In this document: positions 15,316 to 38,629 of the stretch, one piece after another
Numbering within the stretch: position 1 is the stretch's first letter
How the letters are laid out: every line of letters begins with the position of its first letter
NCBI GenBank assembly: GCA_963681965.1
Contig: OY820579.1
Location: 2,848,001 to 2,912,000, forward strand
DNA: 64,000 nt
Direction: 5' to 3'
DNA from: a bacterium
Lineage (GTDB): Bacteria > Electryoneota > JAOADG01
The notes under the pieces: model-generated
What the model saw: the letters and a program-made list of their open reading frames with translations, nothing else
Databases searched by the model: none
What the model was told of the DNA's origin: nothing
Made by a program: the position numbers and the translations under genes

Positions 15316-15365
15316 GTGTCGGGACGACTGGATTTGAACCAGCGACCCCTAGACCCCCAGTCTAG
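15316..15365 (-). repeat. att site: displaced 3' half of tRNA-Pro (50-bp direct repeat of 20638-20687)
   Basis: Exact match from the anticodon stem to the acceptor end plus 3 flanking nt; no D-arm or 5' acceptor strand. Confidence 0.95.
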
Positions 15366-15570
15366 CTCTTGAACGATTAGCGATAATGTATCTTATTACG
15401 TTTGTGAGAATTAGAGCTGACTAAGAAATCGAACTGCTAACGGTTTTTAGTGTTTTTTAGTCGTTAACCGTTAGCACCAATCTCGTCAATCTTCGAGTCA
15501 AAGTCAAGAGGGAGGTAGGAATTCAATTTTTTTTCTTGAATTCACCACAGCGAGATTCCCTAACAGGAGT

Positions 15571-15861
15571 ATGATGAAGAAATCAGATTACGCTCGAACC
15601 GAGGATGGTTGGAAAGATATTTACGAACGCAATCCGAATGCAACAAATGAACGTGTTGCTTCAGTTGTACCACTAGAGTCTAATGGAACCAACTTTTCTG
15701 GTACTTTGGAACGAGGTGCTTCAGTCCAATTACCACCTTTGGGATCGGAAAGAACCCAAGGTGATTTTTCTGGTGAAGTTGGTACTGCCCAAACTCGACC
15801 GGAACTGTCGGAAAGAAAATTAACTACTCCCATTTCGAATCCTCTCTACAAACGTACATGA
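15571..15861 (+). CDS. Hypothetical small protein
   Basis: CAGGAG RBS before ATG; no recognisable motif; an antisense ORF competes. Confidence 0.3.
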   Translation: MMKKSDYARTEDGWKDIYERNPNATNERVASVVPLESNGTNFSGTLERGASVQLPPLGSERTQGDFSGEVGTAQTRPELSERKLTTPISNPLYKRT

Positions 15862-15890
15862 AATGATACATTACCAATTTACACAGAAAG

Positions 15891-16514
15891 CTATCCCCGC
15901 CATTCACCGATATCGGAAAATGGACAATCGACTTCCCAATGAAACTTGCCATAACGAAAATTCGATTCCATACTGGAAACACCGCTATGAACCCAGATAT
16001 TTGGTTCAAGCATGGCATCACAGAATTTTATACAATAAAAATGAGTTATGGAATCACTACGAGCTTGATTTCTAAAATATTGTAAACCACCATGATAATT
16101 ACCAGAAGTATCGAATTGATAATCTGCCCAAAATTCTAGAATTTCGTCATTCAATCTGTGATACATCATTCGACTTCGCCATCGCAGTGTATCGCTTGTG
16201 CCAACATAAGTCGAATCATAGAAATACTTGTTAGGTCGTTTAACAAATTTCACATGAAGCTTTTCATTAACGGTTCCCGAGTCTGTTACAAAACATAGAG
16301 TTGAATCGCTCCAATGAACAGTGTTATCGGGATGAAATCCATGAAAACTAACAGGTAAACTATCGATAAACATTGTAGATGAATCGTAAAAATAACCTGC
16401 TTCAGCAACACCGTCCATAGCAATCCAGTGAAATCCATTAAAATGGATCGGAGCAGCAAGTGAAAGAGAGAATAAAATTGAACTAAACAGAATTACCAAT
16501 ATTGAGTGTCTCAT
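15891..16514 (-). CDS. Hypothetical secreted protein
   Basis: Signal peptide (MRHSILVILFSSILFSLSLA); GAGG RBS; follows the SBBP gene. Confidence 0.55.
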   Translation of the reverse strand: MRHSILVILFSSILFSLSLAAPIHFNGFHWIAMDGVAEAGYFYDSSTMFIDSLPVSFHGFHPDNTVHWSDSTLCFVTDSGTVNEKLHVKFVKRPNKYFYDSTYVGTSDTLRWRSRMMYHRLNDEILEFWADYQFDTSGNYHGGLQYFRNQARSDSITHFYCIKFCDAMLEPNIWVHSGVSSMESNFRYGKFHWEVDCPFSDIGEWRG

Positions 16515-16545
16515 GGAAAAATCCTCATTGAATGGTTTGTAAATA

Positions 16546-19146
16546 CTATTTAATAATCATCATCTTACGTACTGAAGATTGATGATTCGTCGTAAATCGA
16601 TAAAAATACTCGCCTGAGGGCAAGCTTTTCGCATTAAAAACAATTCGATGAACGCCCGAATACTGATCCTCATCGACTATACTTCGAATCTTTCTCCCAA
16701 GCAAATCGAATAAATCAATTTTTACATGTTCTGTGGATGGAATCGAATATTCTATCGTTGTTGATGAATTGTACGGATTGGGGTAATTCTGGCAAAGAAT
16801 CATCGAAGTTGGAAGATTTAACTCATAATTCTTAACACCAAGGGTGTCAAATCGAAATTGAGTGATAAAACAATCGCCTTCAAGACTGCCACCGTTATAC
16901 ACCGTATCGAACGCCGAAATTGTCGTTGGCAAATTGCTACTTGTAGTTGAGCCCACAAATACGATGGAACAATTATTTTCGGTCACCATTCCAAAAGTAT
17001 TATCTGTTCCATTTCCACCAAAATAAGTTGAATAAGTAATATTTGAAACAAAATAATTTAATTTAGCAACAAAACAATCATATCCGCCTTGGTTAAGTCT
17101 TGAATATGCATCGATTGTCGTAGGGAAATCCGAACTATTCGTAATACCTGTAATATATATAGAATTTAGATTATCAATAAAAAGACCATTTCCAGATTCA
17201 TATCCTAATCCTCCTAAAAAAGTACTAGACACTAATCGAGAAGAATCACAATCTAGTACACTGAGAATGCAGTCCATAGAACCACTTAAACTTGTATCAA
17301 TTCCAACAGCAGTAACTGGATAATTTGTACTATATGTCTCTCCTGTCATCACAACATTTCTATTACTATTTATTAATATATTATTCACTACATCCTCATT
17401 ATCTCCGCCTAAATAAGTACTGAAGAGTAAATTAGAACAGGTCGAATCAAAAATAGAAATAAATCCGTCAGACCATCCTCTGTTGAAAGTAGAATCAAAT
17501 GAATTTATAGTTGCTGGAAAATCACTACTTGAAGTAAATCCCGCAATGATAATTTGATTGCGATTATTAAGATTAATAGTATTGCAAAAATCTAAATTTG
17601 TTCCTCCAAAATATGTACTATTAAATATCAGTGATCCAGTCGGATTGATATGCGAGATAAAACAGTCATACTCACCTCCATTAAAGGTAATATTATAAGC
17701 ATTTGTTGTAATTGGAAAATCAGTACTTGAGGTGTTTCCTGTTATTATTGCTCCTCCAATACCATCGGGAATAATGTCTTCACCAACATCACTGTTCATG
17801 CCACCGATAAATTGACTATAAATTAATCGTGATCCAGAGCTATTAACTTTAGTGATAAAACAGTCGCTTGTCGGTAGAGTTGGACTAAGATGAAAGAGAT
17901 TATCAGCAGGAAAGTTCTCACTAAAAGTCGAACCTGTAACAATTACTCCACTAAGACTATCATTACATATTGCACTTCCATAATCAACATCGGATCCTCC
18001 GAGATAAGTACAGAATATCAACGCAGATCCATCACTATTTACATGCGCAATAAAACAATCACTCGAACCATTATAGGATATATCACCAGCTCCTTCTGTT
18101 ATAGGAAAATTATTACTCGCAGTCTCACCAGTTACAACACACCCTCCATTCATATCATTCACAACAGCATTTGCCACATCATTTCCACTCCCACCCAAAT
18201 AGGTACTATACACCAACGGATCGATCCGCAGCATCTGCGAGTTATCATACCCATTTGGCAAATCGATCGCGAAGACATTTCCTGACTCGAGTCTGAATTG
18301 TGCCGTGACATTGTTTCCATGAGTGCCATCAGTAATGGTTTGGTATGCACCCGGAATTGACATCCGTAATTCACCGAGGGAGGTGGGAAGCGAAAGTTCA
18401 TTTGATAAGAGGAGGTCGGACACTCCTGTCCGACTCCTTTTTGTGATAGAATTAATTGAGTCGACGGACAAGAGTGTCCGTCCACCGCCTACTATTGGCG
18501 CTTCCAATCCCTCACACACCATCTTGATTTGCTTCGGATCGGCACCGGGATGTACAACGAAATCGAATTCGAGATGACCCTTGCTCTCATACCATTCGAC
18601 ATCAATGCCGTCCCACACATCGTGATACACCACACGCGTAAAATTGCGGCAATCCGGTGCCCACTTTGAGGAATCATTCCCGAGGAAATAATTGTTGTGC
18701 CACGATAATTCACCCTGTGTATCGATGGATTTTGCGCAAGTGTATTTTCGTAGGTCGGAATTTATTCCGACATCCTCTTGTGTCGCGCATTCACCGACAA
18801 ATTTGAATTTGAGGGCATGCGATTTTAACGCATAGCGCGGTGGGAGATCGCGATCCATCGGGTCAAAAGATAGATTGCCACGTCCGCCGCTTTGCGTCGT
18901 CCTCGCAATAACAGAGGAAGAATCAATCACGGAGGTTACAAGGGTGACACCATCGCGCTCAAGGAACCAGGCGAAGCCATCGCGCCGCACCTCGCATTTA
19001 TACACCACGGCGGAATCCCACTGCCCTTTATTCTCGGTAAACTGGAATGGGTGTGGCAGCCGCGTCGATTGCACACTGACTCCATACGCTGAACCGATCA
19101 GGATAACGACTGCGAGGATCGTCTGAATGAATCTTTTCGTTCGCAT
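16546..19146 (-). CDS. SBBP (beta-propeller) repeat protein with T9SS-type C-terminal sorting domain
   Basis: FTENKGQW N-domain, IDPLVYSTYLGG, repeated STYLGG...D / VTG.T.S.NFP.T units, C-terminal QNYPNPYNSST...GEYFYR. Confidence 0.85.
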   Translation of the reverse strand: MRTKRFIQTILAVVILIGSAYGVSVQSTRLPHPFQFTENKGQWDSAVVYKCEVRRDGFAWFLERDGVTLVTSVIDSSSVIARTTQSGGRGNLSFDPMDRDLPPRYALKSHALKFKFVGECATQEDVGINSDLRKYTCAKSIDTQGELSWHNNYFLGNDSSKWAPDCRNFTRVVYHDVWDGIDVEWYESKGHLEFDFVVHPGADPKQIKMVCEGLEAPIVGGGRTLLSVDSINSITKRSRTGVSDLLLSNELSLPTSLGELRMSIPGAYQTITDGTHGNNVTAQFRLESGNVFAIDLPNGYDNSQMLRIDPLVYSTYLGGSGNDVANAVVNDMNGGCVVTGETASNNFPITEGAGDISYNGSSDCFIAHVNSDGSALIFCTYLGGSDVDYGSAICNDSLSGVIVTGSTFSENFPADNLFHLSPTLPTSDCFITKVNSSGSRLIYSQFIGGMNSDVGEDIIPDGIGGAIITGNTSSTDFPITTNAYNITFNGGEYDCFISHINPTGSLIFNSTYFGGTNLDFCNTINLNNRNQIIIAGFTSSSDFPATINSFDSTFNRGWSDGFISIFDSTCSNLLFSTYLGGDNEDVVNNILINSNRNVVMTGETYSTNYPVTAVGIDTSLSGSMDCILSVLDCDSSRLVSSTFLGGLGYESGNGLFIDNLNSIYITGITNSSDFPTTIDAYSRLNQGGYDCFVAKLNYFVSNITYSTYFGGNGTDNTFGMVTENNCSIVFVGSTTSSNLPTTISAFDTVYNGGSLEGDCFITQFRFDTLGVKNYELNLPTSMILCQNYPNPYNSSTTIEYSIPSTEHVKIDLFDLLGRKIRSIVDEDQYSGVHRIVFNAKSLPSGEYFYRFTTNHQSSVRKMMIIK
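18411..18486. repeat. Inverted REP doublet (REPIN-like) inside a CDS
   Basis: GGAGGTCGGACACTCCTGTCCGAC (18411-18434) and inverted GGTGGACGGACACTCTTGTCCGTC (18463-18486), each palindromic. Confidence 0.7.
18750..18771 (+). repeat. GTAG-type REP inside a CDS
   Basis: GTAG-GTCGGAAT-tt-ATTCCGAC. Confidence 0.65.
18872..18912 (-). repeat. RPE-like palindromic element inside a CDS
   Basis: GTTATTGCGAGG...CGTGGCAATCT resembles the widespread GTCATTGCGAG...GCAATC short palindromic repeat. Confidence 0.6.
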
Positions 19147-19185
19147 CTTTCCTCCACTTCCTTCTAACCTAGTTCAGCATACAAG

Positions 19186-19290
19186 AAAACGCCCAGCACT
19201 TCAAGCATGGGCGCAGAATACTCAGTAAACCAGTAAGATTTTCGGTTACATCGATCTTACACTGCAAGCCGCCCAAGTATGTTTCCGTCG
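19186..19290 (-). promoter_or_regulatory. Putative leader with terminator hairpin upstream of element-1 cargo
   Basis: Motif GGCTTGCAGTGTAAGAT (19254-19270) and hairpin CGCCCA...TGGGCG followed by TTTT; similar to 37215-37421. Confidence 0.4.
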
Positions 19291-19536
19291 TAATTAGTCA
19301 TAAAATAAGATCATTGACATCCGCTATCAATACTAAATAAAATATTCTGCAGAATCATCCTAGAGTTATCGATTCTCACATTGTATTGATAATAGTATTA
19401 GTGAATATTTGGCGTTGATCGATAGCAAATTCCATTCTTTACAAGTGGGTAGTTAGGCGTGTTGAATATTATTATAATTGAAAGTATTAGTATCGGTTGA
19501 ACGTTTTTTTATTCTACACGCTTCAATGCGCACGCA

Positions 19537-20565
19537 TTAAATAGTCGATATCCGACTCCCCACCACATTCACCGCACTTCTTAAATCCTCTACTCCCATG
19601 TGAGCGTAGTATTTCTCGGTAACGACTACCGAGGAGTGTCCCAGCACCTTGGAAGCGTGGTAGAGACTAACGCCATTGCGAACCATGATCGAAGCACAGG
19701 TATGGCGTAATGTGTGGAAATGGACTTTCTCGGAAAACCCAAGCTTCCGACACCATTTCTTGAAGGCGTGGGTAACCCAAGTCCCTTTGAGTGGGTGCGA
19801 TCCATCCTGAGTAAAGATATACTCACAGGTCTTAGGAAGCTGCTCCAGCATTTTCACTACTGTGGATGAAACCGGAATACAGCGAGCCTTCCCCGACTTA
19901 GATTCATGAATTGTTAACAAACCACGTACCGAGTCAAAATCGCTCCACGTTAGCCTACAAAGCTCATTCCTGCGTAAACCAGTATGAACTGCCATGATTA
20001 CTAACGAACGCAGCCATGAGTCACTGATCGAGTTTATGAGCTGTTCTACATCGTTCTCGGATAATGCCACAGTATCGCTAGGAACCTTGATCAGGTTCTT
20101 TCCTGAGATCGGTACTTCCTGCAACAGTCCCCACCGCTTGGCTTGAAAGAAGGCACTCCGTAGCGTTCGAAGTTCGATATTCACTGTCACGGGTTTGACT
20201 TCTGACATTCTTACGCTTTTAAAACGATCAATTAGGAGTTGATTGATAGAAGCAATGGGGATATCCCCAAGTACTCTGATCATATTCTTGAGCGTCCATC
20301 GCATTAAATCGGTTGATCCACAGGTATGGTTTGAGCTAGACCACATAAGACAGTCTTTAGCAAACGCCGATAACAAACACTGATCACTGTGTTTTATCGT
20401 GGTGGGTGTTTTAGTAGGTTTCTTTAGTTTCTGAAGTTTGAAGTCGATAAGGAACTTCTGTGCATCCACTTTGTTTGTCATACCAGTGGATTTCCAGCGA
20501 ATATGTCCCTTTTCAGAAATCTTCAGATACCAGATTGAGCCACGTAGGAAAAGAGAAAACGGCAT
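19537..20565 (-). CDS. Tyrosine recombinase/integrase of element 1
   Basis: HTGLRRNE (R), HFHTLRHT (HxxR), LGHSS (H), TEKYYAH (Y); N-terminal arm-binding-like strand motif. Confidence 0.92.
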   Translation of the reverse strand: MPFSLFLRGSIWYLKISEKGHIRWKSTGMTNKVDAQKFLIDFKLQKLKKPTKTPTTIKHSDQCLLSAFAKDCLMWSSSNHTCGSTDLMRWTLKNMIRVLGDIPIASINQLLIDRFKSVRMSEVKPVTVNIELRTLRSAFFQAKRWGLLQEVPISGKNLIKVPSDTVALSENDVEQLINSISDSWLRSLVIMAVHTGLRRNELCRLTWSDFDSVRGLLTIHESKSGKARCIPVSSTVVKMLEQLPKTCEYIFTQDGSHPLKGTWVTHAFKKWCRKLGFSEKVHFHTLRHTCASIMVRNGVSLYHASKVLGHSSVVVTEKYYAHMGVEDLRSAVNVVGSRISTI

Positions 20566-20640
20566 TGAAAACTCCTTTCAGAGATTCAATACCGTTAGCA
20601 GTATTGTGGGTAAAGTGTTAGCACCTCACCCCTACAAGTG

Positions 20641-20714
20641 TCGGGACGACTGGATTTGAACCAGCGACCCCTAGACCCCCAGTCTAGTGCGCTACCAGGC
20701 TGCGCCACGTCCCG
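20641..20714 (-). tRNA. tRNA-Pro(GGG), intact, CCA not encoded
   Basis: Cloverleaf: CGGGACG/CGTCCCG acceptor, GCGC D-stem, CTAGA-CTGGGGG-TCTAG anticodon arm, GCTGG-TTCAAAT-CCAGT T-arm. Confidence 0.97.
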
Positions 20715-21011
20715 TTGTGTTTCAAAATATTTCAATCCAATTCAGCATCTGCGATTGACCATCAAAAGGTATAAAAGCAAGACTGTTTGGGTTTGGACAT
20801 TTTGAACAGATTTCACTGCTTAATCAACCCATTTTATTAGCAGTTTCATTAGCAATTACAACACGTCAACAAATTCGCTAATGGCAGGTTAAACATGCCT
20901 TTCACAGCATCACTGTATAGTTACTGCTGTCAGGAATTCACGAATTTTATTAGCAACTGCATCGTGCAAGATACATTCTTTAACCTTATTAGTCAAGTTT
21001 CTACTGTAGTA

Positions 21012-21049
21012 CTAGGTTTCGCTGGTTCAAATCCAGTCGTCCCGACACA
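21012..21049 (+). repeat. Inverted copy of the tRNA-Pro 3' end
   Basis: 21019-21049 is the exact reverse complement of 15315-15345; extends to 21012 with 2 mismatches. Confidence 0.9.
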
Positions 21050-21194: not shown

Positions 21195-22070
21195 CTACTG
21201 ATGCGTAGCATCATGCGGAGCATACACGAACTTGATAGAACTGAAAGCTTTGTCAATGGTACGTTGCCTGTAGTCTAGTCGTCGTACAACCTTTTCCCTT
21301 CTACCCAACAACGATTGTTGCAACCATATTCGTTCGACTTGATGCTTGTCTAGACAATGGCGCGCGACCATCGAAACAAAAGCAAGATCGCACCTGGAAT
21401 GATCATTATCATAATCAGAACAATCCCCATTTAACAACTTTGAAAACCGTTCCCCAAACCGATACAGCACAGCTTCAATAACAACACGATCTTCACAGCA
21501 AACAGGACATTCACGATCATTAGTCCATGATTGAACCACTGGAAGTGCTGGTTGATTGCTGATTATGTCGTGCAACTGTTCTTCACAATCCTGGATCATT
21601 AGGGGATATTGATGAAGAAATCTACCTGTCAGTGCAATGAAGCGGGATGTGTTGTAGACTTCGATTGATTGATCGGTAGATAGTTGTATGCGCCGATTGA
21701 TCTTGGTCTTGGTGGTTCGGATAAATGTGTGCAATCCCTTTCCTGATTGCGATACTTCAGTGTATGATTGCAGGTTTTGAATAATGCCTTTGACCCATTG
21801 GTTAATCTTATTGCCCGCATCGATTACATGATCGAAATCTATGGCAGTGAATGGATCGTGTTGGGTTAAGACAAACCCTATTCCATCGTACTTCTGCTTC
21901 ACAAATGTTGCAACACAATCGTGATAACTTGACCATGTTGATGGGTCGTTAATGCGCGCAACATGCCCCGTTACTTGGTAGGGTAACTTCGCTAATCGGG
22001 TTGAAGTTTGTACCAGTTTCCATAGCACAAACTGGTTGAATAACTTCAATTCATCTGGTATTGTAAACAT
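21195..22070 (-). CDS. NrS-1-like primase-polymerase (AEP plus helix-bundle domain, no helicase)
   Basis: IPDELK..QFVLWK, KLPY, NDPSTWS, GIGFVL, AIDFDH, YTEVSQSGKGLH, IEVY..RFIALTG, DHSRCDLAF. Start at ATG 22070 with AAGGA RBS. Confidence 0.85.
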   Translation of the reverse strand: MFTIPDELKLFNQFVLWKLVQTSTRLAKLPYQVTGHVARINDPSTWSSYHDCVATFVKQKYDGIGFVLTQHDPFTAIDFDHVIDAGNKINQWVKGIIQNLQSYTEVSQSGKGLHTFIRTTKTKINRRIQLSTDQSIEVYNTSRFIALTGRFLHQYPLMIQDCEEQLHDIISNQPALPVVQSWTNDRECPVCCEDRVVIEAVLYRFGERFSKLLNGDCSDYDNDHSRCDLAFVSMVARHCLDKHQVERIWLQQSLLGRREKVVRRLDYRQRTIDKAFSSIKFVYAPHDATHQ

Positions 22071-22147
22071 GGCGTTCCTTTCATGAAATGCCCCACAACT
22101 TGTTGCTGTGGGGCTTGCTATCTTCGACTTAACCGAACAACATCGCA

Positions 22148-22660
22148 CTAATCCAATGCAGTTGTAACGAATTCTTCATCTTCGGCAAGTTCCAATAACT
22201 TGCTGAATGTGTTGTTGCGAATTTCATCCAACCACAGCTTTTGTGCTGCCATTAAGATGTCACTACCTGTTGGTTTATCTGCCAACAACCCTTGGTCAAA
22301 CGCTACATCGATATAGCCGACATACCTGCAATCGGATGCCAACCAGTGGGTTAAATTGCTGATGTAACAATTGGGTTCGCATTCCAATAAAATGTCGCGC
22401 ATATCATCTTCATCACTGTCTTCATCCATATCGCAGATATCGGATAAAGTCGAATTCAGTTCTTCGTACACTGCATCATCGGGCAAATATTCACCATCAT
22501 TATGCGCTGCGAAGCAAACATCACGCATCCATTCAGGTGCGTTATCAGCCAAGCAATAAAATTGTTCCCCACTATTTCGGGTGCGTCGTTCCATCATCTC
22601 ATACATCATTTTTGCTAGCTTAATGATCCGCTGTTCTGTGCTTAGTTCGGTGGTTTCCAT
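22148..22660 (-). CDS. Highly acidic protein, Ocr-like DNA mimic candidate
   Basis: Hand count 40 D+E versus 13 K+R in 170 aa; the C-terminal half resembles T7 Ocr as recalled from memory. Confidence 0.55.
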   Translation of the reverse strand: METTELSTEQRIIKLAKMMYEMMERRTRNSGEQFYCLADNAPEWMRDVCFAAHNDGEYLPDDAVYEELNSTLSDICDMDEDSDEDDMRDILLECEPNCYISNLTHWLASDCRYVGYIDVAFDQGLLADKPTGSDILMAAQKLWLDEIRNNTFSKLLELAEDEEFVTTALD

Positions 22661-24341: not shown

Positions 24342-26036
24342 TTATCTGCTTAATATGATATCTTCATGAATAGTGCTATCTTCATAATCAGTTGCATTAT
24401 TAAATGCATCACGTGAATATTGTTTATCTTTCATATAGTTATTGCTTATCGCGTCTGCTTGCTTTTTACAAGCCCCGACCCCATGACCACAATTTGCTAA
24501 CTGTACATCATGACTACCATCCATATGAAGGGAATTATTCCCAAAGCCTCTTGTTTCAATTTCATTGTTAAGATGAATTGAATATTGCGGATGATCGATC
24601 ATCGTTACAGTATGCTTTTTCTGTTTACTGTTCATCGGTTTAATTGCTACTTGAAACGTAAATCTTCTATGTTGGTTCTGGTTCTTCCGATCCTGTTCAA
24701 TGACTTTAAGCTGGTAGACTTTCCAACCAGCACGAATATTCTTTATGAACTGACTGTTGCAAATCGGTATACTGAATGCGATATATCGTTCCCCTTTGAT
24801 CCCCAATAAGTCGCGCATCAGGATATGAACAATCGCTTTCTTTTTATGCACAAATTCAACGGTAGTGTATACTGAATACGTACTATAAACATCACGTTCA
24901 GAAGCATCCGCACAATTCAACAATAAATGTTGATCGCGTCTTACTTCAGTCAATTTCTTCCGCTTATCGAATGCATTCAGTAGATGTCGATTACGATTAC
25001 TTTTGATAACTGACTGCCATTCACCTTTCTGGTAGGTGTCTTCAACTTGTTCGAAGTATCTGTGTAATTCTGAAGTTGTTTTGAATGCAGTTGTTGATAA
25101 ATTCCGCTTCTGTTGAAACATGGTTCGGTATTCATCAATCGTAAGAAAAGTCGGAATACTTACTTGTTTCCGAATAAAATGCTTAATGCCAAAATGCGAA
25201 TAGATTGCAGTTGAATATGTCAATGATTGTTCAGATAGATCAAATCCTGTATGTGTCTTATTGTTCACTTCAATGATCGTTTTTCTTACTTTTCGATGTT
25301 CATTGTTCAAGATGATCCGATCCAATTCACCCTTTGTAACGGTAGCTACTTTACTACCATTATTGCTTGCTTTTGTCGAACTATGGTTGTTACTTTTCTT
25401 CGTCTGCTGTACGGTAGCTTTCTTAACACTAGAACCACTTTCATACCGACCTGAATTTGCTTTCACGATCTTCAAAATCGTTTCAGCTTTATTTAAACAA
25501 TCGTATTCTAACTGATCGTTATCCTTCCCAAAGAAGGGGGCGTATATCGCTGCTGGCAAGCCTTCTTGCTTTTTGGGAAATATGTCTAGACCTAGTTCAT
25601 ACGCATCTGGGACAATTGCACAAATGACATCACGCAACTGATTTGCATCAATCGAACTATCAATCAAAAACCAAAGATGAATACCTAGTCCAGATCGTGA
25701 ATGAACTTCCAGATATTTCAATCCAAGCTGATCCGCAGATTGTTTACTAGCATTAAGTGTCCCGTCAAAATCTGCTAATCCTTTGGAATGACAGCTTGAA
25801 TGATCGAAATCAATCGCAAACCAATTCGACTTGCCTAATTTATCCGCACTACGAAACCCTATCCGACATTTGCCTGCAAGATGTGATTTTACCGCTTCAT
25901 CAATTAGAAAACCAGGAATTTTGCAGTCTGTGGTTCCCATTTTTTTCGTCTTGGGATCACGACTAGTTTCCTTGATAATGCTACCAAGGAACTTTGAATT
26001 CTGCGAAATGTGTTGAAGGATTTCTACTGATTTCAT
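24342..26036 (-). CDS. TOTE-type AEP primase domain fused to an unknown C-terminal region
   Basis: HLAG...IG, WFAIDFD, SRSGLGIHLWF, DIFPK motifs. Confidence 0.7.
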   Translation of the reverse strand: MKSVEILQHISQNSKFLGSIIKETSRDPKTKKMGTTDCKIPGFLIDEAVKSHLAGKCRIGFRSADKLGKSNWFAIDFDHSSCHSKGLADFDGTLNASKQSADQLGLKYLEVHSRSGLGIHLWFLIDSSIDANQLRDVICAIVPDAYELGLDIFPKKQEGLPAAIYAPFFGKDNDQLEYDCLNKAETILKIVKANSGRYESGSSVKKATVQQTKKSNNHSSTKASNNGSKVATVTKGELDRIILNNEHRKVRKTIIEVNNKTHTGFDLSEQSLTYSTAIYSHFGIKHFIRKQVSIPTFLTIDEYRTMFQQKRNLSTTAFKTTSELHRYFEQVEDTYQKGEWQSVIKSNRNRHLLNAFDKRKKLTEVRRDQHLLLNCADASERDVYSTYSVYTTVEFVHKKKAIVHILMRDLLGIKGERYIAFSIPICNSQFIKNIRAGWKVYQLKVIEQDRKNQNQHRRFTFQVAIKPMNSKQKKHTVTMIDHPQYSIHLNNEIETRGFGNNSLHMDGSHDVQLANCGHGVGACKKQADAISNNYMKDKQYSRDAFNNATDYEDSTIHEDIILSR

Positions 26037-28797: not shown

Positions 28798-30166
28798 TCT
28801 TCTTTCCTTTCGCACTGGGTTTACGGGTTCTGGGATTGGATGTTGATTGCGATTGTGCACGTTGGGATTTGATGCGTTCCAGCAGGATGGATGCTGGTTC
28901 ATCGGTGGGGTCTTGGGGAACAAGTTTTCCTGCAAAGGCACGCTTCAGGATCGATTGACGCAAGCGGGTCGATTGGGCTAGGGCTTGATCGATGGTCTGT
29001 TCGACTGCATCTGCTACCGAAAAACGGCGTTCGATTTCAGATACGATTTGCTGCTGTTCTGCTGTTGAAGGCAGTGGAATAAGGAAATCTTCAATTACCT
29101 GCTTTGTTAAGGCTTGGCGGGTCGTTCCCACTTGAATACTTTCAATAAACCGTTGCATTTCTGGGGATGCGATGTAATAACTAAGAAATTTGGGTTCCAA
29201 TGAAGATTTACATCGGATGATACTGACATGTTGGTTCACGTTAGCGGGACATACTTCGTTTGGAACGACACAAACGCGACCGATAGATGCACCTGTAATA
29301 TTTAATAATACATCATTGATTACGACACGGGTTCCCGTCATTTCTTCGTCTTGTTCTGTAGAAATGTGGACTAACCCATCTAATACAAATCGATTGAAGT
29401 GAACATTCTGGCTACGAATGAAAGGAATGCCAGAATTTGTGTACACATCTTTTCCACCACGTGGGGTACTTCCACTTCCCACCTTAGAAGAATGCTTTGC
29501 CAATTTTTCTTTTGGAAATTGTTGTAATACACCATTTTCGATAGATGGATCGCGAAATGATTTGGCTAATACCGATTGCCGATACCGTTTCAGTTCACGC
29601 TTCACATTCTTCAGTGCGACTACCCCAGCATCCAGCTTGCTGAATAGTTCTTCAATCTTCGCGACAATCCGTTTCTGTTCGGGAAGGGGTGGTAAGGGAA
29701 ATTGAAATTCTTCAATGTCTGTAGAACTAATGTTTGGTTGGGCTGCACCATAAGCTTCTTTAAGAATTGTTTCGCGAATGACAGCTAAGTAATGATATAG
29801 AAGTTGGAAATCAACTTGATTATTCGTAAAAAATCTGAACCGTCCAACACGTTGATTTAATAAGGGGGTATTATCGAGTTTGAAAATTCCATACTTACCT
29901 GTTGTTGCACCAGACATTGCAATTAAAACGTCACCTTTATGCACTACAAATGATGCGTTATCTTTTAGTGCCTTTTCAGATAAATAAACTGTATCGTTAT
30001 TAAAGCTAATACATCCTTCAACTATATTGGATATGCGTATAAGTGGTACACCATCTTTTATGAATTCAGAACTTTTAAAAGCGTATCCACCTTGTAACTG
30101 GCAGAATTCACCAAGTTTCGTCCATACCCAACTTGATGGTAATACATCATTATTATTGTTGTTCAC
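28790..30166 (-). CDS. hsdS: Type I RM specificity subunit
   Basis: LPSSWVWTKLGE, two TRDs, PLPPLPEQKRIV and PLPSTAEQQQIV conserved regions, GKLVPQDPTDEPAS tail; probable GTG start 30166. Confidence 0.93.
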   Translation of the reverse strand: MNNNNNDVLPSSWVWTKLGEFCQLQGGYAFKSSEFIKDGVPLIRISNIVEGCISFNNDTVYLSEKALKDNASFVVHKGDVLIAMSGATTGKYGIFKLDNTPLLNQRVGRFRFFTNNQVDFQLLYHYLAVIRETILKEAYGAAQPNISSTDIEEFQFPLPPLPEQKRIVAKIEELFSKLDAGVVALKNVKRELKRYRQSVLAKSFRDPSIENGVLQQFPKEKLAKHSSKVGSGSTPRGGKDVYTNSGIPFIRSQNVHFNRFVLDGLVHISTEQDEEMTGTRVVINDVLLNITGASIGRVCVVPNEVCPANVNQHVSIIRCKSSLEPKFLSYYIASPEMQRFIESIQVGTTRQALTKQVIEDFLIPLPSTAEQQQIVSEIERRFSVADAVEQTIDQALAQSTRLRQSILKRAFAGKLVPQDPTDEPASILLERIKSQRAQSQSTSNPRTRKPSAKGKKNA

Positions 30167-31076
30167 GATTTGCCAGTTCTTCTTGAATCTGTTGTAAACG
30201 TTGATACATGTCGAGTGGATACCCTTTCGGATTAACAACAAATGCAGGTTCACCGCCCATTATCGTTATTCGTCTGTTGTCATGATCAGGTCGTTCAGGC
30301 CAATCAATTGCCTTTACATCATCCCGAAATAGAGTTATTTCTTCAGTTTCGTTCAATCCGATAGCTGTAGTAAGTTGTGGAAGGTCTTTGAAATATGGCT
30401 TATTACATATCAGAAAAGCGATGGGGAAGCACTTATAAATTTGAATAAAACCAATATCATTCCATACCGTCCCTGCTGGCATCATTACATCACGCATTAG
30501 TACCATTGGATCATAAGGATAGAACCAGTAGAACACATTGATGTCACTAGGTATTTCAATTGATGTGTCTAAAACAAATGGTCGTGCTTTGTCATCAAAG
30601 TCGGAAATATGACCATCAACTTTCATAGCAATAAGATGACCTAGAATTGATCTTATTATAGGTAACGTCTTCAGTTTCGAATGAATTCTAGTTCGAGAAC
30701 TGCGTGTACCCTTCATCATTAGTTTATACTTTACATCGTTCACAGTCAGAACCAAAGCTTGATCACCCTTACTAAGAATTTCATTGTTACATTTGTTACA
30801 AAGTGTAGTAAAATGTAATCCGTTTCTTGAAGTAAATACTTCCCTTTGATTTCCCATTTTTAATTCTTTTGGTAGATAGAGTAAAAGAAAACTTTGGATT
30901 AAAACTTCTTTATGTAATTGCACTTCACTGGCTGGAACATGATCTTTTGTCAACTTACTTTGAAGCCCACAGATATTACAAACAGGGGTTTTACCTTGTT
31001 TATGGAATGGGTCATCGTTTCCCTTATCGTTCATGTTGCTGTACCTGTCAATTTTGTCCCAATTCAATACTATCAC
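30153..31076 (-). CDS. HNH endonuclease-like protein
   Basis: CNICG...LTKDHVP...LCNKCNN zinc/HNH pattern. Confidence 0.65.
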   Translation of the reverse strand: MIVLNWDKIDRYSNMNDKGNDDPFHKQGKTPVCNICGLQSKLTKDHVPASEVQLHKEVLIQSFLLLYLPKELKMGNQREVFTSRNGLHFTTLCNKCNNEILSKGDQALVLTVNDVKYKLMMKGTRSSRTRIHSKLKTLPIIRSILGHLIAMKVDGHISDFDDKARPFVLDTSIEIPSDINVFYWFYPYDPMVLMRDVMMPAGTVWNDIGFIQIYKCFPIAFLICNKPYFKDLPQLTTAIGLNETEEITLFRDDVKAIDWPERPDHDNRRITIMGGEPAFVVNPKGYPLDMYQRLQQIQEELANREQQ

Positions 31077-32434
31077 CGCTTGTTTTGATGTGAAAGTAAT
31101 TCCTTTAAGACATCAATTATTGGAATTGCATCCCCTTCCTTCGATGAATAACCAGTCGAATGATGTGTGAACATTGCTTCAGCAGCACGTTGTAAGATTT
31201 GTTGTTTGGTTTCTTCGCTGATTTTTCGTTCTGTCAACGGTAGGAAAGTTGTAACACAATTCTGACGATGCTGATTGATCACGTAATTATGCTGATGAAA
31301 ACGGTAGTTCTTCACAGCGAAGATCAATAAGTAATACAAGGCAGTAAGCAATGCAATCTTTAAAATCAGTTGCTGGAATAATGAATAAGGAAGTCCGAAT
31401 AACGTTGCTTGATTTGAAGACAAACTGTAGCTGTTACAAGCATTACAAGCACTAACTATCCAGAAGATTATGATTGCAACAACAATCGTACATCCAATAC
31501 CTATCACGTACTTAAGCCACCGATCAATCATTTTCTGATGGTATATTGCAGTTTCATCAAAAGCTTTTATCCATTTGAATTGCGCGCCTTCTGCGGTTAA
31601 CAATTCTGCTGCTGATAGGGTTTCTTCAAGTTTTTTTACCTTTTCTACAACATCTTCTTGAATTACATTCGCACGAGTAAGAAAATCAGTTATTACTTTA
31701 TAAAAGACCTTGTAATACGATGCAATTTGCGATGCATACTCATTTACAAATTCATAACTTGTTTCTAATTTTTGTTCGCTTAACCTATCGATCATAAAAC
31801 CCATCGTTTGAATTGCTTGCGTTGCGGTTTTGATTTCTTCTACAGGAATTTGTTCGTAATTGATAGTTCGAAAGGGTTTTAACAAAGCAAATATCTTATC
31901 GAATACTTCAATCAAACCTGTCTTGTTTGCTTGTTTTAAAAATTCGACTAATGTATCGCGTTCGATCAACAGAATTCTTTCAACACTTTGGTCAATAATT
32001 TGCGCCCAAGGTACGTTCTGTTCATTGGATTGCATATTATCACTTCTTTTTATGCTATCTTGAAACGGTATTACGTGCGATAAAAAATGTGAAATAATTT
32101 GATAATCCTTCTTATAACTTATACTAGCGTCAGTCAGCATCATCATCCATATCTGCTTATCGGTTTCTGAAGTTAATGCCAGTATCTTACCAAATAAATC
32201 TGATATCTTTTCTACGACTGCGAGTACTGGGGTAATTTCGATATCTGGAATGACATCCAGACGCAAATCCTTTAAAGGTGAAATCAACGTAAAGTAATCT
32301 GTTACGACTTTTTCAATTGCGTTGTGATTAATGACCTTCGATTTACTTTTTAAGGCTACTAAGTCATAAGATAGAACGGCTTCGACTGCGTGCTTCAATT
32401 CCAATTGTGCGATTGTGTCATTTTCAGAAATCAT
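31073..32434 (-). CDS. Helical repeat / coiled-coil protein with 2 C-terminal TM segments
   Basis: Two similar ~120-aa helical units, two hydrophobic segments, KNY..H.HN..INQHRQN tail. Confidence 0.65.
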   Translation of the reverse strand: MISENDTIAQLELKHAVEAVLSYDLVALKSKSKVINHNAIEKVVTDYFTLISPLKDLRLDVIPDIEITPVLAVVEKISDLFGKILALTSETDKQIWMMMLTDASISYKKDYQIISHFLSHVIPFQDSIKRSDNMQSNEQNVPWAQIIDQSVERILLIERDTLVEFLKQANKTGLIEVFDKIFALLKPFRTINYEQIPVEEIKTATQAIQTMGFMIDRLSEQKLETSYEFVNEYASQIASYYKVFYKVITDFLTRANVIQEDVVEKVKKLEETLSAAELLTAEGAQFKWIKAFDETAIYHQKMIDRWLKYVIGIGCTIVVAIIIFWIVSACNACNSYSLSSNQATLFGLPYSLFQQLILKIALLTALYYLLIFAVKNYRFHQHNYVINQHRQNCVTTFLPLTERKISEETKQQILQRAAEAMFTHHSTGYSSKEGDAIPIIDVLKELLSHQNKR

Positions 32435-32447
32435 ATTTTCTTCCTTC

Positions 32448-35201
32448 TTATCCCGCTAACACCTTGTTCAATTCATCCATCACCCGTTGATAATCCTTGC
32501 CAAACAATTCACTGAATTTGTAAATCCCACCCTTCAAATTGAAGGGAATGCTTTCAAAATCGTCTTCGGTAATTTCGATACTGGTTGCAATATGTTCTTT
32601 GATCATCTGCAACCATTCTAACTGTTGGGGTGTAAAACTGCGACCCGACTGCTGTTGCTGTTGCAACCAATCGTGAAAGCGGTGTTCCACAATATCGATA
32701 AATGGGGTTAAATCGTCTGCCATTCCACTGGTAAACTTCACCAGCGATACCAGATCGGTCAATACCGATTTCGGTTGTCCCTTCACCCTGCTGTGTTCCA
32801 ATTGATCGTAACAATGCCACAAGCGTTCGGGAATAAATCCGTTCGGTGGTCGCTTGATGGTGTCGGCTAATTCCCTGATTGCATCGTAAGTCAGTTTCCG
32901 TTTGCCGTAAGGTTGGCTGTACAATATCTGTAATGCCGTTATTTCATCGCGATGGTCTTGCAGGTACTGTTGCCACGATTGAACATACTGTTGGGCTGCT
33001 TCCTTCGCCTTGCTGTTGAACCCTGCTTCCAGCACGAAATCCTGCGATACGATGTCGATGGTCTGTTCAAGCAGTTGTTTCGTTTCAATCAGCAGATTGC
33101 GTAGTTTTGGATCGTGAAACGGTTTGGCAACAGTTTCCGCAAGTTCCCCTGTAACGATTTTCAGTTGTTCGACAGTGGGGTTATCGGTCGCAAATTTCTT
33201 GCAGGCTGTTTCTACCTGTACATCGGGATCGAAGGCTGTGAATAACGGCAGGATCAATTCAGTCATCGATGCCACACCTGCGACATCCTGAATACGTTTG
33301 CGGTCTTCCTTCGACAATTGCCGATCCATTTGCGCTAACCGATTGCCCAATGAAATCAGATAATCTTCTTCACGATTACCTGCAGCAATCGCAAGTAACA
33401 ACCTATCGAAGGGTATGGATTTCTTGCGTTCCAGTGGTCTGCTATCCCCTTTATCGCTTTCGCAGACACCAATTGCATCGACAATAACGAAATGGGTTTT
33501 GGCTTTCGCATCGGGTGACACTAATTGCAATGCGTTGCTATCGATGACCCTGGTGCCCCTTCCCTTCATCTGTTCGAAGTAAACTGCGGATTTGATGTCG
33601 CGCATGAATAACAGACATTCCAGCGGTTTGATATCGGTGCCTGTCGATATCATGTCGACCGTGACTGCGATGCGTGGGAAGTATTCGTTGCGAAATGCTG
33701 CGATCAAGGCTTCGGGGGTTTCACCCGTGGTTCTGTAAGTAATCTTCTTGGCAAAGTCTTTGCCCTTGCCGAATTCATCCCAGATAATATTCACGATATC
33801 TTCGGCATGACTATCGGTTTTGGCAAAGATTAAAGTCTTTGGTACTTCGGTTCGACCAGGGAAGATTTCCGTGAACAATTTATCGCGAAAGGTTTGGATT
33901 ACGGTGCGGATTTGATCGACCATGACAATATCTTTATCCAACTGGGTCGGGGCATAATATAAATCTTCATCCAACAGTTCGTAGCGTACTTTGCGGGTCA
34001 TCTTGTTGCGTTTATCGATGTATTCGCCCGCTTCGACTTTGCCACCTTTCACACTAGCATTCGTCTTAATCCGATACACTTCGTAACCGACATTCACCCC
34101 TTCGGCAATTGCGCGCTGATGGTTGAAATCCATCACCTGATTTTGTTTGAAGAACCCCAGGGTCTGCTTCGACGGCGTTGCCGTTAATCCAACAATGAAT
34201 GCATCGAAATAATCCAATACCTGTCGCCACTGGTTGTAGATGGATCGATGACATTCATCGGTAACAATAAAGTCGAACGCTTCAATCGGGATGGTGGGAT
34301 TATATTCAATAGGCTTGGGATCGTTGTCCAAGGTTAAATCGAAGGCAGAATGTTCATCCAATTCGGGATCGAATTCAGTTCCCTTCAACATCGAAAACAA
34401 GCGTTGGATTGTCGTGATTGTTACGTTGCAGACGGGATCGATGGTGTTCGATGACATCAATTGGATGTTGTACAGTTCAATGAATTTGCGGTGGTCGTCG
34501 GGGGTTTCGTACTTCTGAAATTCAGTCGATGCCTGAATGCCCAATGTTCTGCGATCCACCAGGAACAAGATATGTTTCGCACCAGCGAATTTGATCAACC
34601 GATAGATGAAACTTACTGCCAAAAAACTTTTTCCACTTCCAGTCGACATGCTGATCAATGCGCGTGGTTTGGATTTCGCAAAGCTGGCTTCCAGGTTCGT
34701 GATAGCTTCGATCTGACAATCACGCATTCCCTTGGTAATGATCGGGGGCATTTCGCGCATTCGGGCACGCAATGTGTTTGGTTCTTGTAGCCATTCGGCA
34801 AGCTTATCGGGTTTGTGGAAAGCGAATACTCCGCGAGGTCTACAGTCAGGATCGCGGATGTCGTAAAACATCGTTTCTTCACCTGTACTGACATAACCGA
34901 ACGTAAGTGCTTGCTTGGCAATGGGGATGTGCTTCAGTTTACTGCGAAGATAGCTATCGGTTTGATCGACCACGCCTGATAGTGTATCGCCCTTTTTCTT
35001 GGCTTCAATCACACCTACAGGGCTGCCTTTTACGAACAGAACATAGTCTACAAACCCAACATCGGTGGGATATTCGCGGACTGCAACCCCAGGAAAAGAC
35101 AAGTTTAATTCATCGATATTCTGTAGCTGCCAACCTGCTGCAGTCAACAGTTCATCAATCTTGTCGCGGGCTTCTTGTTCAGGTTTCTGTGGTTGTGGCA
35201 T
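32448..35201 (-). CDS. hsdR: Type I RM restriction subunit (EcoEI/EcoAI-like C-terminus)
   Basis: VDYVL...VIEAKK nuclease, MSTGSGKS, DECHRS, GLTATP, QMKGRGTR. Confidence 0.95.
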   Translation of the reverse strand: MPQPQKPEQEARDKIDELLTAAGWQLQNIDELNLSFPGVAVREYPTDVGFVDYVLFVKGSPVGVIEAKKKGDTLSGVVDQTDSYLRSKLKHIPIAKQALTFGYVSTGEETMFYDIRDPDCRPRGVFAFHKPDKLAEWLQEPNTLRARMREMPPIITKGMRDCQIEAITNLEASFAKSKPRALISMSTGSGKSFLAVSFIYRLIKFAGAKHILFLVDRRTLGIQASTEFQKYETPDDHRKFIELYNIQLMSSNTIDPVCNVTITTIQRLFSMLKGTEFDPELDEHSAFDLTLDNDPKPIEYNPTIPIEAFDFIVTDECHRSIYNQWRQVLDYFDAFIVGLTATPSKQTLGFFKQNQVMDFNHQRAIAEGVNVGYEVYRIKTNASVKGGKVEAGEYIDKRNKMTRKVRYELLDEDLYYAPTQLDKDIVMVDQIRTVIQTFRDKLFTEIFPGRTEVPKTLIFAKTDSHAEDIVNIIWDEFGKGKDFAKKITYRTTGETPEALIAAFRNEYFPRIAVTVDMISTGTDIKPLECLLFMRDIKSAVYFEQMKGRGTRVIDSNALQLVSPDAKAKTHFVIVDAIGVCESDKGDSRPLERKKSIPFDRLLLAIAAGNREEDYLISLGNRLAQMDRQLSKEDRKRIQDVAGVASMTELILPLFTAFDPDVQVETACKKFATDNPTVEQLKIVTGELAETVAKPFHDPKLRNLLIETKQLLEQTIDIVSQDFVLEAGFNSKAKEAAQQYVQSWQQYLQDHRDEITALQILYSQPYGKRKLTYDAIRELADTIKRPPNGFIPERLWHCYDQLEHSRVKGQPKSVLTDLVSLVKFTSGMADDLTPFIDIVEHRFHDWLQQQQQSGRSFTPQQLEWLQMIKEHIATSIEITEDDFESIPFNLKGGIYKFSELFGKDYQRVMDELNKVLAG

Positions 35202-37214: not shown

Positions 37215-37421
37215 AAAAAAAACAACCCAACACTTTAACGTGCTGGGTTGTTCTGGTTACTATTCGAACAAGTACAAATAGACCGTACATGTAAGAATGT
37301 CATCAATCGATGACTTCGTGATCAAGATGGTTAGAAAAGCATCCCGAAATAACCAACTGTCACATTCAGATTATTTTACCCAGCAAGCCTTAAGATATGA
37401 AACAAGTTAAAGCGTTGTCAA
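37215..37421 (-). promoter_or_regulatory. Putative promoter, leader and terminator hairpin of the defence operon
   Basis: TTGACA (37421-37416)-N18-TATCTT; motif GGCTTGCTGGGTAAAAT; hairpin AACAACCCA...TGGGTTGTT plus T-run just before the first gene. Confidence 0.5.
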
Positions 37422-37432
37422 CAATTTATTGC

Positions 37433-38458
37433 CTACAAAGCAATTCTATTGACCGTTTCCCTAAGACTTTCTGGCTGCAAGTGGGCATAGAACTTTTCAG
37501 TCGTACTGACTGTAGTGTGTCCAAGAAGTTTGGCTATGTGGTAAATCGACACACCATCTGCAGCAAGCCACGATGCACACGAATGACGTAATGAATGGAA
37601 GTGTAGCTTGTCGTCTAGACCAAGCTTCCTGATGTATTGTTTCAGCTTATGGGTCGCCCAGTACCCACTAATTGCCTTACCATCATCCATTCGAAACACC
37701 AATCCATCATTCAACAAGTCACGTCGTTTCTGTAGCAACAAACAAGCTGCTTCACCTAATGGAATTGTTCGCTGCTTTCCCTGTTTCGTTTGATAGTTTT
37801 CACTGCTTTGGATGTGAACCCAACGTTTATTCATGTCCACTTGTTGCCAGGACAAGTTAATAATTTCACCCCTTCTTAAACCTGTCAGTATTGCGAATAG
37901 GACAACATCACGTAACCACAGTTCATTAATCGCTTCAAACAACTTCTGGAAGTCATCCTGCCCGAAAAACGTTTTCGTACATTCAGCAACACGAACAAAA
38001 GGAATATTCTTGAAAGGATTGCTTTCAATCCATCCCCAGTTCATTGCAATTGTAAAAGCTGATCGAAGGGTTCGAAGTTCCAGGTTTACAGTTACAGGCT
38101 TCACCTGGGTTATGCGAAGGGTTTTGTATGTGTCGATGTTGTGTTTATTGACACTACCTATCCTAATGTTACCAACTGCATTCTGAAATGCCATGAATGC
38201 ATAATGAAATAGATCGATAGTGCCTTTGGTGTAATTGGATACGCCATTCTTCAGGAATTCTTCCTGAAATTCTGTTAGCGTACGATGTGATTTGGGACGT
38301 TTATGAATTTTTTCGAAGGAAGTCAAAACCTTTAATGCTTCTGACTTCTTCGTACAACGGGTGGTCTTCCACTGCGTCTTTCCATCATCACTTTGCGAAA
38401 GGATATACCAGACACCGTTCGCCCGACGGAATAGACTTAAATGATTTGGACTAGACAT
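37433..38458 (-). CDS. Tyrosine recombinase/integrase of element 2
   Basis: LTGLRRGE, HFHSLRHS, LGHTT, TEKFYAH; shares VKPVTVN.ELRTLRSAF with integrase 1; probable ATG 38458. Confidence 0.92.
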   Translation of the reverse strand: MSSPNHLSLFRRANGVWYILSQSDDGKTQWKTTRCTKKSEALKVLTSFEKIHKRPKSHRTLTEFQEEFLKNGVSNYTKGTIDLFHYAFMAFQNAVGNIRIGSVNKHNIDTYKTLRITQVKPVTVNLELRTLRSAFTIAMNWGWIESNPFKNIPFVRVAECTKTFFGQDDFQKLFEAINELWLRDVVLFAILTGLRRGEIINLSWQQVDMNKRWVHIQSSENYQTKQGKQRTIPLGEAACLLLQKRRDLLNDGLVFRMDDGKAISGYWATHKLKQYIRKLGLDDKLHFHSLRHSCASWLAADGVSIYHIAKLLGHTTVSTTEKFYAHLQPESLRETVNRIAL

Positions 38459-38542
38459 TGCTTTTCCATTAGCAATGCCATTAGCACTATTGAATTTCGT
38501 GTTCGGAACTATAGCATCTATCAAGACTTAGCTGTGTATCAT

Positions 38543-38592
38543 CCTAGACCCCCAGTCTAGTGCGCTACCAGGCTGCGCCACGTCCCGTTGTG
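38543..38592 (-). repeat. att site: displaced 5' half of tRNA-Pro (50-bp direct repeat of 20670-20719)
   Basis: Exact match from 5 nt upstream of the tRNA 5' end through the anticodon stem; no T-arm. Confidence 0.95.
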
Positions 38593-38600
38593 CAAAGCGA

Positions 38601-38629
38601 AAGATAGTGTTTCGAATCGACTAATTCAA
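38601..38629 (-). promoter_or_regulatory. Putative host tRNA promoter
   Basis: TTGAAT-N17-TATCTT ending 13 nt upstream of the tRNA 5' fragment. Confidence 0.55.

Follow-up and report, generated by a model that had tools for sequence, protein, structure and literature searches.

The window analysed here is a stretch of 64,000 nucleotides (nt) from a bacterium of the phylum Electryoneota (JAOADG01; contig OY820579.1, positions 2,848,001 to 2,912,000 of the forward strand), and coordinates refer to it unless stated otherwise. Its sole tRNA gene, a tRNA-Pro(GGG) called by ARAGORN at 20640-20714 on the minus strand, lies between two islands that each carry a tyrosine integrase gene, E1 (5.3 kb) and E2 (17.9 kb). 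The gene scores 62.9 bits against the Rfam tRNA model, with no other RNA family match in 15000-39000. The whole 4.24-Mb single-contig genome contains 47 tRNA genes, those for proline being one GGG, one TGG and one CGG. The genome-wide count proposed in an earlier reading, made from the sequence alone, thus returned a single tRNA-Pro(GGG) gene, and genome-wide its fragments are confined to the present locus.

The sequence-only reading had also reported an 18-bp core, the anticodon stem-loop, at 15348, 20670 and 38543. All three copies are exact, and a search allowing up to 2 mismatches gave 3 matches versus 0 in 100 shuffles, so that none is expected by chance. The core is where two perfect 50-nt direct repeats overlap, and these are longer than had been stated: 15316-15365 equals 20638-20687 (tRNA positions 28-75 plus 2 nt), and 20670-20719 equals 38543-38592 (5 nt upstream plus positions 1-45). 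These two repeats bear out the description of the left copy as a 3' half, the right copy as a 5' half and the middle copy as complete. Followed in the direction of the tRNA, the locus reads chromosomal promoter, 5' fragment and core; int2 with the 17.9-kb E2; the complete gene; int1 with the 5.3-kb E1; and finally core, 3' fragment and a hairpin with a U-run. The features of the tRNA gene, of the attachment (att) sites with their P and P' arms, and of the flanks are as follows.

15260..15301, minus: terminator-like hairpin with U7, 17 nt past the displaced 3' half (fold energy)
15316..15365, minus: attR of E1, made up of the core and the displaced 3' part of the chromosomal tRNA (positions 28-75 and 2 nt more; 50-nt repeat with 20638-20687)
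15366..20639, minus: island E1, 5.3 kb, with int1, an 866-aa DUF7948/T9SS-sorted protein (T9SS, type IX secretion system) and 2 small unknown open reading frames (ORFs) (Pfam, NCBIfam)
15366..15530, no strand assigned: E1 P arm with GTTAGCA arm-type sites at 15435 (minus) and 15470 (plus) (motif counts)
19537..20565, minus: int1, tyrosine integrase, 342 aa (PF00589, 8.5e-36)
20566..20639, no strand assigned: E1 P' arm with GTTAGCA sites at 20594 and 20617 (motif counts; homology to the P' arms at the His and Arg-ACG islands)
20640..20714, minus: complete tRNA-Pro(GGG) gene, the only full copy; attL of E1 and attR of E2
20670..20687, minus: common core, anticodon stem-loop, putative crossover region (common to both repeats)
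20715..20830, minus: core-proximal E2 P arm, diverged copy of the chromosomal EEP-tRNA spacer (global alignment versus shuffles)
20832..21002, minus: distal E2 P arm with ATTAGCA at 20836, 20848 and 20949 and a sigma-70-like TTGACT-17-TATCTT at 20996-20968 (motif counts, promoter scans)
21003..21049, plus: inverted fourth fragment, a 3' half of tRNA-Pro(GGG) with a mutated core (overlooked by the earlier reading)
37433..38458, minus: int2, tyrosine integrase, 341 aa from ATG 38458 (PF00589, 1.2e-34)
38459..38542, no strand assigned: E2 P' arm with ATTAGCA sites at 38468 and 38480 (motif counts; matches the P' arm of a relative's island)
38543..38592, minus: attL of E2, displaced chromosomal 5' tRNA part (positions 1-45 plus 5 nt upstream; 50-nt repeat with 20670-20719)
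38601..38629, minus: chromosomal promoter-like TTGAAT-17-TATCTT (looser scan, 8/12)
38681..39904, minus: EEP-family gene, ancestral upstream neighbour of the tRNA (53% identical to a tRNA-adjacent gene of the same genus that matches PF03372)

Integrases, arm-type sites and the two islands

E1 is organised as a tDNA island: it encloses an integrase gene, the complete tDNA marks one of its ends, and downstream, at the opposite end, there is a 3' fragment in the same orientation. Its integrase, whose R, HxxR and Y motifs can be made out in the alignment, belongs to a family with 7 members in this genome. Three other islands of the genome, at tRNA-His, tRNA-Arg(TCT) and tRNA-Arg(ACG), have the tRNA, then the integrase gene and, downstream, the 3' part of the tRNA once more, repeated from tRNA positions 30, 8 and 20, respectively. 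The two arms of E1 are 76-82% identical to the arms of these three typical islands, and for the P arm alone the figure is ~80%. Judged from these alignments, the family evidently keeps its arms while the tRNA-derived middle appears to be swapped, and the comparison supports E1 as an ordinary 3'-replacing island. The gene of the 866-aa protein occupies 16546-19146, and the GC content inside E1 falls to 0.33-0.36 at 16-18 kb versus 0.43-0.48 in the flanks, with dips in E2 too. Downstream of the displaced 3' half, where a native terminator had been proposed, we do find a hairpin followed by U7 (-17.1 kcal/mol, z -4.0, equalled by 0/200 shuffles); a stricter terminator scan made no call there.

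Two further observations concern this family elsewhere in the genome (genome coordinates). At the Arg(ACG) island, the two P'-arm sites recur past the far repeat in identical context (2154961-2155200), which suggests a second stacked element or a remnant. A 44-nt stretch at 2954051-2954094 is 98% identical to the E1 P arm, possibly as a relic of an att arm that belonged to another member of the family.

E2 also encloses its integrase gene, and its tRNA fragment is a 5' one at 38543-38592, upstream of, and co-oriented with, the tDNA at 20640-20714. Int2 is 38% identical to Int1, with the catalytic motifs in place; the alignment begins at residue 29 of the form that starts at TTG 38524. This TTG probably opens an upstream extension that overlaps the arm sites, and the start of int2 is most likely ATG 38458. 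The attP of E2 would accordingly be laid out as P-arm sites, ~117 nt, tRNA 5' half, core, 56 nt, P'-arm sites and int2. A decayed tRNA 3' half beside int2 was considered and rejected, as 1455 and 877 of 2000 shuffles scored equally.

The distribution of arm-type sites separates the two islands. The hexamer TTAGCA occurs 33 times in the window (both strands), with 9 occurrences in the four element-side arms and 0 in the chromosomal flanks. Extended by one position, ATTAGCA is found 10 times, 5 of them in the two arms of E2 (Poisson p = 1.4e-8), and GTTAGCA 9 times, 4 of them in the two arms of E1 (Poisson p = 5.6e-7), while neither is present in the chromosomal flanks. The tRNA-His island of the same genome is flanked by the same CCGTTAGCA layout and the Arg-ACG island by similar sites. 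For E2, the comparison comes from the nearest relative of Int2 among 79 genomes of the phylum, a 51% identical integrase of a typical island at tRNA-Ser(GGA) in another genus of the family (genome G003). This island has a TGCTAAT pair, 12 nt apart, in its P' arm and again in its P arm. The pair in the far arm of E2 (20832-20854) matches the relative's P arm at 21/23 positions and the pair on the int2 side matches its P' arm, both in the same orientation and each with 0/1000 shuffles as good. Both arms of the E2 attP thus appear to belong to the same integrase, whose binding there we infer from these motifs. Because the DNA upstream of the intact gene carries Int2-type arm sites and matches the G003 arm, 20715-21002 is best read as E2's own P arm. 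We regard this pattern of arm sites as the strongest new evidence for two islands.

The same pattern bears on whether the locus might instead hold one composite 23-kb element that brought its own whole tRNA-Pro, integrated by way of a bare core flanked by the E1 far arm and the int2 arm, and so split and complemented the host gene. Such an element would leave what is seen, with 5' and 3' fragments as the outermost copies and the complete gene inside, and phages that disrupt a host tRNA and supply a replacement are documented, in the account of actinobacteriophages at least (PMC10865867). The attP of a composite would, however, have mixed arms, whereas the sites pair by island (ATTAGCA in E2, GTTAGCA in E1); the E1 arms are homologous to those of stand-alone typical islands and the E2 arms to those of the stand-alone G003 island, and each part has its own integrase. 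We therefore consider a composite element quite unlikely.

Taken together, it is very probable that two separate tyrosine-integrase islands of one family sit in tandem, with opposite polarity, in the single-copy tRNA-Pro(GGG) gene. Both would recombine in the anticodon stem-loop, at a crossover point that we infer. The E1 attP would consist of the core and the tRNA 3' half beside int1, so that the old chromosomal 3' half would have been displaced downstream to 15316-15365. The E2 attP would carry the tRNA 5' half and the core on the arm distal to int2, with no 3' half, so that the old chromosomal 5' half and its promoter would have been displaced upstream to 38543-38592 and the tRNA gene regenerated at the far end of E2. 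Under conservative site-specific recombination the intact gene would join the 5' part of E2 to the 3' part of E1, whichever island came first; since all copies are identical, the sequence itself holds no record of these events. The assignment of the 3' half to E1 and the 5' half to E2, already proposed from the sequence alone, agrees with the islands' own integrases, with their own arm-site variants and with ancestral synteny to the right of 38592. After any one of the three pairwise excisions a complete gene would remain, and a 23-kb co-excision circle is a logical possibility. The islands may still be mobile, and the intact gene would be transcribed from E2 DNA.

Flanking genes, relatives and reads

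The ancestral upstream flank of the gene was sought in three relatives. In a genome of the same genus (G001), the order is polysaccharide deacetylase, MerR, EEP and tRNA-Pro(GGG). In two genomes from other genera of the family, the order lacks EEP and runs deacetylase, MerR and tRNA (G002) or MerR and tRNA (G003). This upstream order matches the right flank of 38592, which argues that an element, rather than the ancestral flank, supplied the DNA upstream of 20714. The sequence-only reading had named the opposite outcome, relatives with the DNA upstream of 20714 as tRNA flank, as one that would overturn it; the relatives match the right-hand copy. An EEP-tRNA-nupC empty site, which it had suggested looking for, was found in none of the three relatives.

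These results also address the view that the right-hand 5' fragment arose by segmental duplication or through misassembly, with the true chromosomal flank upstream of 20714. The copies are 100% identical and their relative age cannot be read from the sequence, as this view would allow. It is contradicted by the relatives' gene order, which fits the right-hand copy, by the Int2-type arm sites upstream of 20714 and by junction-specific contigs that are at the expected depth in runs of two studies, which together make it highly improbable.

The reads were available as Logan contigs from four runs, built with a word size of 31. In X1 and X3, which come from two studies, one of which may be the source of the assembly, depth over the 50-nt repeats is double that over unique sequence, and the middle junction is represented by a 42-nt contig of its own (20658-20699) at single depth. 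The contigs of both runs break at the repeats. The depths support the three junction types as real in the reads. Since the 50-nt repeats are longer than a 31-mer and excised forms add no new 31-mers, such contigs cannot separate integrated from excised islands.

Some depth differences were seen for E2 itself. The 17.5-kb E2 contig of X3 (21020-38572) has a depth of 11.9, versus 15.7 for an E1 piece and 16.6 for the right flank; the corresponding values in X1 are 22.8, 24.6 and 22.3. The lower depth in X3 may reflect E2-free cells or a composition or coverage bias, and a short E2-arm contig of that run with a depth of 14.9, out of step with the E2 body, blocks any conclusion. In X4, a contig of 1006 nt (depth 8.3) joins 28951 to 33322 and skips 4370 nt, in which hsdS, a pair of unknown ORFs and the end of hsdR are located; E2 thus exists as a deletion variant in another sample.

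Relatives of the integrases were compared at their own sites. Among 29 loci of the family, 21 have a complete tRNA. In the other 8, blastn with the tRNAs of the present genome gave 3'-part matches in 4, one ambiguous 19-nt match and nothing in 3; no 5'-only fragment beside an integrase was found in these 8 loci with this query set, which detects conserved tRNAs only. Searches of genome contigs and viral contigs returned no close relative of Int2. Int2-like loci in metagenomes number 4, at 38-49% identity: two have a complete tRNA-Arg(TCT) upstream of the integrase gene, and the remaining two are short contigs, of which one begins within a tRNA-Arg-like sequence.

Several sites of the family are of interest on their own. 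In G001 (C169, 2268-2660), tRNA-Pro(GGG) is followed by a remnant of a same-family integrase (residues ~5-126 only), and the gene is a repeatedly used target in the genus. In G003 (C121, 384-5604), the 3' part of tRNA-Ser(GGA) is repeated three times in succession behind the gene (75, 48 and 33 nt), at spacings of 3.1 kb and ~1 kb; very small islands of the Int2-like lineage, or their remnants, are stacked there. A more distant integrase of the family (30% identical) in G027 (C41, 1352-1400) lies ~100 nt upstream of a tRNA-Pro(GGG) 3' fragment that begins at position 27, with the complete tRNA-Pro(GGG) ~11 kb away; here it is the fragment end of the island, rather than the gene end, that holds the integrase.

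The far end of E2 and the origin of its polarity

The chromosomal DNA to the right of 38592 retains a promoter-like TTGAAT-17-TATCTT that stops 14 nt short of the tRNA start and resembles the sigma-70-like promoters seen upstream of other tRNAs in the genome. The claim of a promoter-like sequence before the right copy thus holds as to its presence (8/12 in a looser scan), but the element falls below the threshold of a stricter scan. This promoter-like sequence would now drive only the 5' fragment and int2.

The E2 DNA at the other end resembles this chromosomal region. More specifically, the core-proximal 116 nt of E2 align with the chromosomal EEP-tRNA spacer with a score of 41.5 versus 22.8 +/- 5.2 for shuffles (0/1000 as good), and a 28-nt motif is common to 20794-20821 and 38646-38671 (0/500 shuffles as good). 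That the motif might be a genome-wide repeat was rejected, with no copies elsewhere in the genome. The perfect repeat itself extends 5 nt beyond the tRNA start, and the aligned E2 copy of the native promoter has decayed to CTGAAT-10-TATTTT. Deeper in the arm, neither tblastx nor blastn detected remnants of the EEP gene.

In E2, the arm adjacent to the tRNA is a diverged version of the EEP-tRNA spacer, which suggests capture by aberrant excision. A lambda-gal-like aberrant excision would first have captured the spacer and the 5' half from a related host, beside the P-arm sites; the resulting attP would have held a whole tRNA gene, and the redundant 3' half would later have been lost. Relative to the G003 island, the P-arm pair of E2 is ~80 nt farther from the core and the P'-arm pair ~55 nt nearer, the expected product of capture on one side and loss on the other. 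We hold this capture-then-loss route for the 5' polarity of E2 to be about evenly balanced between right and wrong. Repeats of the family reach variably into the 5' half, with start positions from 8 to 30 in this genome and 14 in G003, and E2 is the extreme of that continuum of repeat reach.

Just outside the P arm lies a fourth fragment, an inverted 3' half of tRNA-Pro(GGG) at 21003-21049, which adjoins a terminator-like hairpin (21055-21072) and a short primase gene (21195-22148) whose homologues are open frames of 766-863 aa. Its T-arm and acceptor part (21021-21047) is 100% identical to the intact gene, and its 6 substitutions, which affect the anticodon loop and stem and the variable region, fall within 11 positions, with 0 in the other 36. 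The acceptor strand CGTCCCG is of the type found in the Pro-GGG genes of this bacterial family, and the exact pattern of the fragment had 0 matches in genome contigs.

This fragment raises the alternative that E2 once carried an inverted complete tRNA-Pro beside a bare attP core, and that an integrase-mediated inversion moved the promoter and the 5' half onto the core. The inverted 3' half would then be a scar, its core later mutated and the arrangement thereby locked. Such a history would explain the topology of the E2 end; the distance from the fragment to the 5' half is precisely one arm length (288 nt), the changed positions are concentrated in its core region, and integrases can invert between inverted tRNA att sites, according to the description of the Thermococcales elements (PMC5495485). 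It fits poorly with the arms: the pair at 20832-20854 agrees with the G003 P arm as it is now oriented (21/23), the reverse complement of the arm is at background (18 versus a shuffle mean of 18.3), and the half-site beside the fragment (TTCTA) is unlike the core half-site. Weighing both, we find an inversion unlikely. A broader proposal, that the half replaced is not fixed in this integrase family and that E2 switched by way of capture, a whole-tRNA attP and loss, with the inverted fragment and the short primase as scars, is tentative and seems to us rather doubtful.

Some findings speak against the presence of two tandem islands of opposite polarity as set out above. The inverted fragment and the short primase gene indicate that the end of E2 was rearranged in a way that the two-island model leaves unexplained, and E2 may be defective. 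Near the intact gene there is no good sigma-70-like promoter, the copy of the native one having a 10-nt spacer; the best candidate lies 254 nt upstream (TTGACT-17-TATCTT), and the alternative is read-through from the co-oriented E2 genes. Neither an excised circle nor an empty site was seen in the Logan 31-mer contigs, which are blind across 50-nt repeats. No close relative of Int2 or E2 was found, the best in the 79 phylum genomes being the 51% identical one, so that the 5'-type attP has never been seen free or as a second copy. Finally, the downstream flank is not conserved: nupC is beside no tRNA fragment in 3/3 relatives, and the tRNA of G002 and G003 is followed by a different gene, which here lies ~190 kb away.

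In the present genome, that gene (~3059446-3060264, genome coordinates) is found beside tRNA-Pro(CGG), with no tRNA-Pro(GGG) fragment at the site. The gene orders indicate that the lineage has been rearranged, with a breakpoint apparently at or near tRNA-Pro(GGG).

The remaining contents of E2 comprise int2, two primase-like genes and a type I restriction-modification (R-M) system.

21195..22148, minus: primase gene matching only the N-terminal ~300 aa of its homologues (PHROG 13901, 4e-59)
24342..26036, minus: AEP-type primase-like gene (PF22548, 7.4e-11)
26969..35201, minus: type I R-M cargo with interspersed unknown ORFs (Pfam)
26969-28432, minus: hsdM (Pfam)
28790-30253, minus: hsdS (Pfam)
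32448-35201, minus: hsdR (Pfam)

No obvious small excisionase gene appears in the ORF list, the small ORFs themselves being unscanned. Between the AEP-type gene and hsdM is a 0.93-kb gap (26037-26968; GC content ~0.33) in which the only listed ORF of at least 35 aa with an ATG or GTG start is one of 35 aa at the end; two overlapping ORFs of 61-70 aa appear when TTG starts are allowed. Direct repeats of the TTTCTTTC type (26489-26538) and a perfect inverted repeat of 16 nt (26521-26558) lie in the gap, which could be a replication origin or control region.

Relation to known islands and significance

Work by Zhao and Williams in 2002 reportedly provides a bacterial precedent for islands with a displaced 5' fragment. 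In the Islander collection, a displaced 5' tDNA fragment is listed for 159 of 3919 islands (PMC4383910, Table 1), a figure that agrees with the earlier remark that 5' replacement is uncommon. The same account counts 125 tandems of two or more islands and 2083 anticodon-centred sites (PMC4383910). E2 resembles the 5'-fragment class as it is outlined there, with its integrase inside the island, the 5' fragment upstream and co-oriented, and a crossover in the anticodon stem-loop. Arrays of islands are described by Krupovic et al., 2019 (PMC6563490), and the present locus resembles such tandem arrays in that successive integrations re-use the att core and leave one tRNA fragment per island. It differs in that the arrays of these accounts stack one kind of fragment on one side, whereas here the islands are on opposite sides of the gene. 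The Arg-ACG site of the same genome and the tRNA-Ser site of G003 also look stacked.

Other systems share single aspects of the locus. In the description of pTN3 and TKV4 from Thermococcales, the attP shares positions 2-44 of a tRNA-Leu and the gene is regenerated away from its promoter (PMC5495485). E2 is alike in having an attP with the 5' part of a tRNA and in cutting the gene off from its original promoter; in that account, however, the attP is located within an SSV-type integrase gene that is split on integration, whereas Int2 is intact (341 aa, its ATG 84 nt from the core). The tRNA-dependent lysogeny reported for actinobacteriophages (PMC10865867) is likewise without the usual 3' replacement, the element supplying the tRNA function. 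The phages of that report have only ~10 bp in common with attB and bring a whole tRNA gene of their own, whereas E1 and E2 each share 50 nt with the gene and rebuild it, so that this type of lysogeny, as reported, would fit only the hypothetical composite of E1 and E2. Tycheposons are presented as tRNA-specific and sometimes as several in a row between partial tRNAs (Hackl et al., bioRxiv 10.1101/2020.12.28.424599); from that presentation the likeness is in gene content alone, a tyrosine recombinase with a primase-type replication module and cargo, and the host phylum is another one.

Both 5'-fragment islands and tandem arrays are already known from these accounts, and the locus is two known kinds side by side. 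We met no printed description of a 5'-type and a 3'-type island paired on one tRNA gene; prime signs are unsearchable, and no absence is claimed. The locus offers a clean, fully bounded bacterial case of the rare 5'-replacing type adjoining a 3'-replacing relative, and since both designs occur in one gene they can be compared arm by arm. Island finders that assume one fragment type per tRNA gene would mishandle such loci. The homology of the captured spacer provides a concrete, testable route by which an island could change the side that it replaces. For the cell, the only tRNA-Pro(GGG) relies on mobile DNA for both of its halves and probably for its promoter too. If the doubtful side switch did take place, E2 together with a 3'-type neighbour would have produced a tRNA gene without a chromosomal part, and possibly a mobile 23-kb composite that carries a tRNA.

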